Source: Escherichia coli | GTDB lineage: Bacteria > Pseudomonadota > Gammaproteobacteria > Enterobacterales > Enterobacteriaceae | DNA: 64,000 nucleotides | Assembly: GCF_045037415.1 (NCBI RefSeq) | Contig: NZ_CP173438.1 | Direction: 5' to 3' (one strand) | Shown here: positions 28,854 through 29,108 of the stretch, in pieces | Layout of the letters: every line of letters starts with the position of its first letter | Position numbering within the stretch: the first letter of the stretch is position 1 | The notes under the pieces: model-generated | What the model saw: the letters and a program-made list of their open reading frames with translations, nothing else | Told to the model about the DNA's origin: nothing | The model's database searches: none | Position numbers and translations under genes: made by a program

Positions 28854-28859
28854 TTCTTT

Positions 28860-28938
28860 TTCAAATAATGAAACGCCGCGTGGATGCCATTTATCGCACA
28901 AGATAGAGTGCATTTATCGCGCGGCGCATCATTCTTCA
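28860..28938. repeat. Mu-like prophage right end (terminal transposase-binding repeat region ending ...CTTCA)
   Basis: Contains two copies of GCATTTATCGC and GCGCGGCGCA...CTTCA, resembling the Mu right end as recalled from memory; all phage genes end here and host sequence follows. Confidence 0.5.
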
Positions 28939-29108
28939 TGTGAATCATCCGTTGATTAATTATATATAAACATTATGTATCAACAAGTTACATTGATAAT
29001 TAACGCTACCATTAATAAAAATACCCCACAAGGTCCGAAAAAAAACGCCGGCAATGTGCCGACGTCTTTGAAAAGAAAGGATTGTCTATGTTATCGCCCG
29101 TTATTCAT

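Follow-up and report, generated by a model that had tools for sequence, protein, structure and literature searches.

What kind of element ends between a gin-type invertase gene and aroA on this Escherichia coli chromosome, and at which base does it end? In the window, by which we mean the whole 64,000-nucleotide stretch of DNA that was analysed (contig NZ_CP173438.1 of assembly GCF_045037415.1), this interval had been read from the sequence as a Mu-like right end that lies directly after gin, finishes about 85 bp further on in CTTCA, is devoid of the com/mom module and is inserted in the intergenic region downstream of aroA. Our analysis places both the boundary and the family of the element differently. 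We conclude with high confidence that positions 28854-28931 are the gin-proximal attachment end of Phi2, a 37-kb transposable prophage of the BcepMu type that is carried by E. coli ST131.

The window is a segment of the ST131 chromosome. Across 28854-29108 it shares 99.9% identity with EC958, JJ1887 and many further strains, and with EC958 it is collinear over 49.5 kb at 99.97-99.998% identity, the only differences being two indels, one additional base pair in aroA and three base pairs missing near 2256. The latter indel, at about 2256-2259, is the absence of one GTA repeat copy (TTTTGTA[GTA]TTCC) relative to EC958 and falls into non-coding DNA between the Dam-like methyltransferase gene and the next Phi2 open reading frame. 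Prophage Phi2 of EC958, where its full length is 37,048 bp, is the same element as that in the window, with 99.97-99.998% identity across Phi2. By identity to EC958 and by gene content, the window holds the part of Phi2 that runs from the early region to the gin-side terminus (1-28931, plus strand); the mor-side 8.1 kb, which include the transposase gene, fall to the left of it.

To obtain the boundary, we aligned three sequences: the junction on the aroA side, the far junction as it stands in EC958, and the K-12 locus, which is unoccupied. On the aroA side the host sequence continues through ...GATTCACATGAAGAA(T) and on the far side it picks up again at GAAGAATACTAAA...; the symmetric termini TGAT...ATCA leave a 6-bp duplication, GAAGAA, and the last phage base is therefore 28931 (...ATCA), 78 bp past the gin stop codon. 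Genomes with an empty site align from 28931 onward only, under the annotation 'ycaL', and where the phage is inserted at another site, as in more than 20 genomes, the similarity ends exactly at 28931. Moreover, a reconstructed empty site consisting of left flank, one repeat copy and right flank, that is, with the phage and the other repeat copy removed, agrees with strain MS20658, whose locus is unoccupied, at 400 of 400 positions. The transposon end so delimited by empty sites and independent insertions (28854-28931, plus strand) comprises 78 bp, has no coding capacity and ends in ...GCGGCGCATCA. The distance of about 85 bp originally given thus shrinks to 78 bp, the terminus lying 7 bp further left, and the CTTCA taken for the tip of the phage (28934-28938) is host DNA, namely the complement of ycaL nucleotides 2-6; the adjoining CAT at 28937-28939 is the reverse complement of the ycaL ATG (ycaL starts with aTGAAG). 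Between gin and the aroA stop codon we therefore find, in this order, 78 bp of phage DNA, the 6-bp repeat within the first 8 nt of ycaL, an AT-rich spacer and the aroA terminator.

The other end of the element lies outside the window and was taken from the near-identical EC958. It starts with TGATTAG, and the same 6 bp, TTCTTC, stand alongside it as the second copy of the target-site duplication, whose first copy occupies 28932-28937 (GAAGAA in ycaL sense, ycaL nt 3-8), as seen in the junction alignments and the match to the empty site. The termini TGATTAG...GCGCATCA are of the 5'-TG...CA-3' form. The inverted terminal sequence and the target duplication, on which the original prediction had staked its reading, are hence both present at the far end, TGAT answering ATCA with subterminal repeats on either side, but the duplication anticipated there measures 6 bp and not 5. 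In Mu, the target duplication is 5 bp long. Duplications of 6 bp were found in all six independent insertions of the phage for which they were determined, and every one has a different sequence: TTCTTC at ycaL in this window, CCTGAG at irp2, ATTCTA at yqcC/syd, CCAGTT at ylbE/fdrA, TACCCG at codA/codB and CCTCGC at phnP. With six distinct duplications of this length, both the ability of the element to transpose and a stagger of 6 bp are established. What has been observed directly comprises the boundaries, the duplication, the multiple sites of insertion and the homologies described below.

Among 60 broadly sampled records, this end adjoins many unrelated genes, among them codA, ssuB, fdrA, phnP, an Ail/Lom gene and genes of other prophages, with some of the insertions on plasmids, as is typical of random insertion; the match always stops at 28931 bar a chance extension of 1-3 bases. 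One of these insertions, that in ssuB (L007), had appeared to lack its mor-side end. This was rejected, as the phage in question is a variant that continues past mor for about 1 kb of additional genes and has a variant tip, TGATCAGACATGAGATAAATG, which is also present in two other strains and in which the repeat positions are kept. The variant phage (L007, L023, L025, L026 and L027, all from other E. coli) carries two extra small genes in the roughly 1 kb between mor and the terminus, so that the mor-side arm seems to serve as a site for cargo.

The behaviour of the end in other genomes also bears on the proposal that the prophage is integrated site-specifically, for instance as a P2- or P88-like phage with an att site next to aroA. 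Exactly this ycaL junction recurs in 354 of 5,426 complete genomes, and the region is covered by a GenBank phage record labelled 'Entero_P88', both of which such a proposal would explain. Yet no integrase gene was found in the annotated gene content of Phi2, and in about 240 further genomes this end is found at numerous unrelated places, every one of them marked by a 6-bp duplication of its own; nor was a conserved att core seen at both junctions of independent lysogens. The shared ycaL junction is consistent with clonal inheritance, since the strains given are known ST131 isolates, and the record labelled P88 is a prediction with wrong bounds, extending from a neighbouring P2-like prophage into the tail-fibre/gin region of Phi2. 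We therefore assign site-specific integration a probability close to nil. The record itself (GenBank PV468777.1, locus L003) spans about 16 kb of host genes, from dmsABC through serC and aroA. The second prophage of the window, at about 45300-64000, is P2-like and lies beside dmsA; it carries an integrase gene (45323-46330, minus strand), Cox and others.

Which features of the 78-bp end would the transposition machinery recognize? Reading from the tip inward, the gin-side end has the structure TGATGCGCCGC-GCGATAAATG-(13 nt)-GCGATAAATG, with the outer repeat at 28911-28920 and the inner one at 28888-28897 (both minus strand; nt 12-21 and 35-44 from the terminus, respectively), and the far, mor-side end has the structure TGATTAGACTT-GAGATAAATG-(13 nt)-GAGATATTTA. 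These repeats have in common the motif G[CA]GATAWWT, of which the 37-kb phage has just four copies, one at nt 12 and one at nt 35 from either terminus and all facing inward; both ends of BcepMu contain it at nt 12 and 35 too. The window as a whole contains five matches, two of them inside the 78 bp. Position and conservation suggest that at each end the transposase binds this pair of repeats. TG...CA termini have been cited as a trait of BcepMu relatives (PMC2628397).

The resemblance of this end to a Mu right end, which the original prediction had expected to emerge from an alignment with Mu and D108, is real. For comparison the ends were aligned ungapped; semi-global alignment slid off the ends in the case of the D108 right end and the BcepMu left end. 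The terminal nucleotides of Phi2 match the Mu right end at 17 of 25 and 24 of 50 positions, the latter a score that only 2 of 20,000 shuffles reach, and a gapped alignment gives 50 identities in 72; the D108 right end matches at 16 of 25 positions. The right end of BcepMu scores slightly better than that of Mu, with 28 of 50 and not one of 20,000 shuffles. The likeness to the Mu right end accounts for what the earlier reader had observed. Within 28882-28931, the right ends of Mu and of the BcepMu-type phages have TGAAGCG(G/C)... and a CGATAAATG core in common, at almost equal distances from the tip, and they share this core despite transposases that lack similarity at the BLASTP level.

The course of integration can be described as follows. 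The 78-bp end, with its terminal ...CA and its two inward-facing GCGATAAATG copies mirrored at the mor-side end, would be bound by the transposase at the repeats at nt 12 and 35, on which the synaptic complex would be built. The element integrated by strand transfer of the DDE type, in which ycaL nt 3-8 were attacked with a stagger of 6 bp, and the TTCTTC duplication arose when the stagger was repaired.

Is the element nonetheless a phage of the Mu/D108 kind? The question can be answered from the transposition genes and from the order of the genes in general. The Phi2 transposase (589 aa), a DDE enzyme of the rve family, is 67.8% identical over 581 aa to BcepMu gp09 and its partner, an ExeA-like AAA+ ATPase, is 58.7% identical over 404 aa to BcepMu gp08. 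By Pfam, the transposase has an rve domain only and the ATPase an AAA_22 domain; Mu transposase domains are absent, and BLASTP detects no similarity of the transposase to MuA (best E value 0.48) or of its ATPase partner to MuB (E value 2.6). In EC958, read in the orientation of the window, the body of ycaL is followed by the TGATTAG terminus and then by the leftward early genes: mor, a gemA-like gene, gam, and the genes for the ExeA-like ATPase, the rve transposase and ner-like and HTH proteins. Beyond this early region come a rightward gene for a cI-type repressor, the Dam-like methyltransferase gene, the holin and lysis genes and the terminase, a Mu-like portal with the F and G head genes, P2-like sheath, tube, tape-measure and baseplate genes, and finally the tail-fibre gene with its invertible segment, gin and the ...ATCA terminus. 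The repressor candidate of the cI/Cro-type HTH class (745-1101, plus strand; Pfam HTH_3, E value 5e-15, and Phage_CI_repr) is divergent from the leftward early operon and occupies the position of gp17 in BcepMu.

The early region of Phi2 is thus inverted relative to Mu, so that mor and not the repressor abuts the far terminus, and the order that marks a Muvirus (left end, c, ner, A, B ... mor, late genes, all rightward) is not that of Phi2. A rearrangement specific to EC958 was considered and rejected, as the inverted early region is present in every relative examined, namely three other lysogens and the Klebsiella relative KP12, and in BcepMu; the same order in relatives and in BcepMu identifies it as the native layout. 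Summer et al. are said to have regarded, in 2004, the inverted early region with mor at the terminus as defining for the BcepMu family.

Judged by these protein identities, Phi2 is a BcepMu-type phage, that is, a Bcepmuvirus in the broad sense, and NCBI files Escherichia phage PhiKM (PQ738613), whose transposase is 100% identical to that of Phi2, in this genus. With BcepMu (NC_005882) Phi2 shares mor at the tip, the leftward early operon, the lysis genes, the Mu-like head, the P2-like tail, TGA(A/T) termini and an end motif at identical positions. It differs in that it ends with gin and has a Dam-like methyltransferase, whereas BcepMu has an acyltransferase gene at this end and neither gin nor an invertible fibre segment; host and base composition differ as well. 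With Mu and D108 it has in common that all are transposable myoviruses with TG...CA ends, a G-segment and Gin system, homologues of Mor, GemA and Gam, a Mu-like portal and the F and G head genes. Different from Mu and D108 however, it has an rve transposase and an AAA_22 ATPase in place of MuA and MuB, to which they are unrelated at the BLAST level, a 6-bp duplication, an inverted early region, P2-like tail genes and no com/mom. A further likeness, to transposons of the Tn552 type, comes from a record name, BcepMu gp09 being entered as 'Tn552/IS1604 rve transposase'. The 6-bp duplication of Phi2 is in keeping with this group of rve transposons. Unlike these small transposons, Phi2 is a complete phage.

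It follows that the description of a Mu-like end directly after gin stands in the broad sense that the end belongs to a transposable, Mu-like phage, but not in the sense of the Mu/D108 type, as the transposase is of the BcepMu type. A true Muvirus prophage from which com/mom has been deleted, leaving gin beside the Mu right end, would account for a Gin with 76.7% identity to that of Mu, for the similarity of the end to the Mu right end (17/25, 24/50 with 2 in 20,000 shuffles, 50/72 when gapped) and for the TG...CA termini. It is incompatible with the failure of BLASTP and Pfam to relate the transposition proteins to MuA and MuB, with duplications of 6 instead of 5 bp in six of six insertions, with an inverted early region that has mor at its tip and with P2-like tail genes; the end, moreover, is as similar or more similar to the BcepMu right end (28/50), and the arrangement of gin followed by the phage end recurs in all relatives examined. 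Very improbable on any count, this explanation is already refuted by the tests on the transposase and on the duplication.

But why, then, would com and mom be lacking? In Mu and D108 both genes lie between gin and the right end. In Phi2, gin (28281-28853, plus strand) encodes a serine DNA invertase of 190 aa (Pfam Resolvase, E value 8e-51, and HTH_7) with 76.7% identity to the Gin of Mu across 180 aa, and no open reading frame was found between it and the phage end. Neither did tblastn of the 37-kb prophage and the window reveal homologues of Mu Com or Mom (best E value 0.26). With 78 non-coding bp and no Com/Mom match, the predicted absence of the module after gin is borne out. The enterobacterial relatives examined all end with gin as Phi2 does, which indicates that nothing has been deleted recently, and the comparison of these layouts argues that the absence of com/mom is a trait of the lineage and not a deletion. 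Put in terms of the mechanism, the module is missing after gin because the Phi2 lineage never has it at that end, which carries the acyltransferase gene in BcepMu and the invertible fibre segment with gin in the enterobacterial relatives. The sole DNA-modification gene of Phi2 is located away from the right end (1218-1982, minus strand) and encodes M.EcoMIV, a D12-class N6-adenine DNA methyltransferase (Pfam MethyltransfD12, E value 9e-29), which has been reported to reside on Phi2 and to be poorly transcribed in lysogens (PMC4659465).

The invertase is accompanied by the expected substrate. An invertible, G-like tail-fibre segment extends from 26159 to 28226 and is bounded by 26-bp crossover sites (26159-26184 and 28201-28226), whose sequences were taken from Table 3 of PMC4134206 and then located in the window; a 214-bp inverted repeat of 96% identity was also found. 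The same study gives the Phi2 invertible segment as 2,067 bp and saw it flip in PacBio reads of EC958. A Resolvase domain, a C-terminal HTH and inverted 26-bp sites around a fibre segment are the marks of an invertase of the Gin/Hin/Cin group. The tail-fibre gene with its invertible C-terminal cassettes lies at 25351-28226 and forms an intact 445-codon open reading frame in the orientation of the window; the identical sequence of EC958 is given in RefSeq as fragments and pseudogenes.

One could also suppose that the prophage is defective and truncated, a remnant that has lost its real right end and possibly mom with it, so that 28931 would be a deletion breakpoint. Such a view is in line with the previous classification of region s1-ST131, which has been likened to 'prophage 2' and of which a 23-kb piece was scored by PHASTER as an incomplete prophage and thus classed as a prophage remnant (PMC9205054). 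However, the terminus is the same at all independent insertion sites, with target duplications, and the end mirrors the other end of Phi2 and the ends of BcepMu base for base in architecture. In addition, Phi2 is of full length (37,048 bp as compared to 36,748 bp for BcepMu), with intact transposition, lysis, head and tail genes. A deletion breakpoint at 28931 is in consequence something that we can hardly credit. Both termini, the target duplications and the intact gene set argue, against the label of a remnant, that Phi2 is structurally complete; the prophage is presumably active at present.

On the host side, the spacer and the aroA terminator are those of the undisturbed chromosome. The aroA terminator hairpin that had been placed in the host flank is indeed present, at 29038-29069 on the minus strand, and consists of a 13-bp stem, a 3-nt loop and a U8 tract according to RNA folding (dG -18.6 kcal/mol, z -3.84); it is conserved in K-12. 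As a hairpin with a U-tract downstream of the stop codon, on the strand of the gene, it is a predicted Rho-independent terminator of aroA. A consensus terminator scan of 28700-29300 gave no call, probably for the reason that the stem of the hairpin extends into the U-tract. No known RNA was detected with Rfam at 28200-29400, the sub-threshold 25.8 bits for PsrR1 (gathering score 42) being a chance match. The aroA gene itself (29109-30393, minus strand; stop codon 29109-29111) has a +1 frameshift relative to EC958, the extra base lying at 29369-29370. At aroA nt 1023-1024, AAAGAG-ACC of EC958 has become AAAGAGAACC, and the extra base splits the 427-codon gene into overlapping open reading frames at 29109-29441 and 29332-30393. 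If the frameshift is genuine, auxotrophy for aromatic compounds is to be predicted; alternatively, the extra base is an error in the sequence.

The gene that the prophage has entered is ycaL. The insertion does lie downstream of aroA as originally described, 171 bp beyond its stop codon, but it is inside ycaL, after nt 8 and thus at codon 3, and not in the intergenic region. The orphaned first 8 nt of the gene (ATGAAGAA; 28932-28939, minus strand; start codon 28937-28939), identified by alignment to the empty sites of K-12 and MS20658, and the AT-rich aroA-ycaL spacer with the native ribosome-binding site and promoter region of ycaL (28940-29037, minus strand, collinear with K-12) have been left on the aroA side, from where they point into the phage, antisense to gin. 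The body of ycaL is found 37 kb away, directly downstream of mor and in the same orientation. Its reading frame meets a TAA 13 codons upstream, within the phage end, and contains no ATG or GTG ahead of the signal-peptide core. RefSeq annotates ycaL at the far junction of EC958 (locus L002, 18843-18900) as 'intact', starting from an ATT codon within the phage end, and the gene is called 783 nt long in EC958 as compared to 765 nt in K-12. Promoter scans of both junctions yielded weak sites that were no commoner than in shuffles; that at 28999-28972 on the minus strand, with a score of 9 of 12, is a promoter-like site at chance level. As such matches occur at chance level, no claim on ycaL expression is derived from them.

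YcaL is a protease of outer-membrane quality control. With 354 complete genomes sharing the junction, Phi2 is fixed at ycaL in a large sub-lineage of ST131. It is conceivable, though rather unlikely in our estimate, that this sub-lineage is effectively ycaL-null or that YcaL is made from phage transcripts only, and that antisense transcription driven by the host could modulate tail-fibre inversion. If true, either effect would be a regulatory consequence that defines the lineage, of which we found no description.

Much of what precedes fits into an existing picture. The invertible segment and the crossover sites of Phi2 have been published for EC958 (PMC4134206), its methyltransferase has been described and Phi2 has been reported to be absent from ST131 clade A (PMC4659465), and a Bcepmuvirus prophage in ST131 isolates already appears in a preprint. 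In the searchable literature we found nothing on where exactly Phi2 ends, on its 6-bp duplication or on the interruption of ycaL; 'ycaL' does not occur in PMC4134206, and a search for literature on the length of the BcepMu duplication or on ycaL in ST131 returned nothing relevant. The exact termini, the duplication and the interruption are thus additions at the level of annotation. Taken together, the feature is an ordinary, already catalogued ST131 prophage end, whose kind and mechanism are known and well supported, and our understanding of transposable phages is unchanged by these results. Their main value is a correct annotation: the ends of Phi2 are fixed (37,048 bp, TGAT...ATCA), and Phi2, neither derived from Mu nor P88-like nor a remnant, is to be regarded as a structurally complete transposable phage of the BcepMu type.
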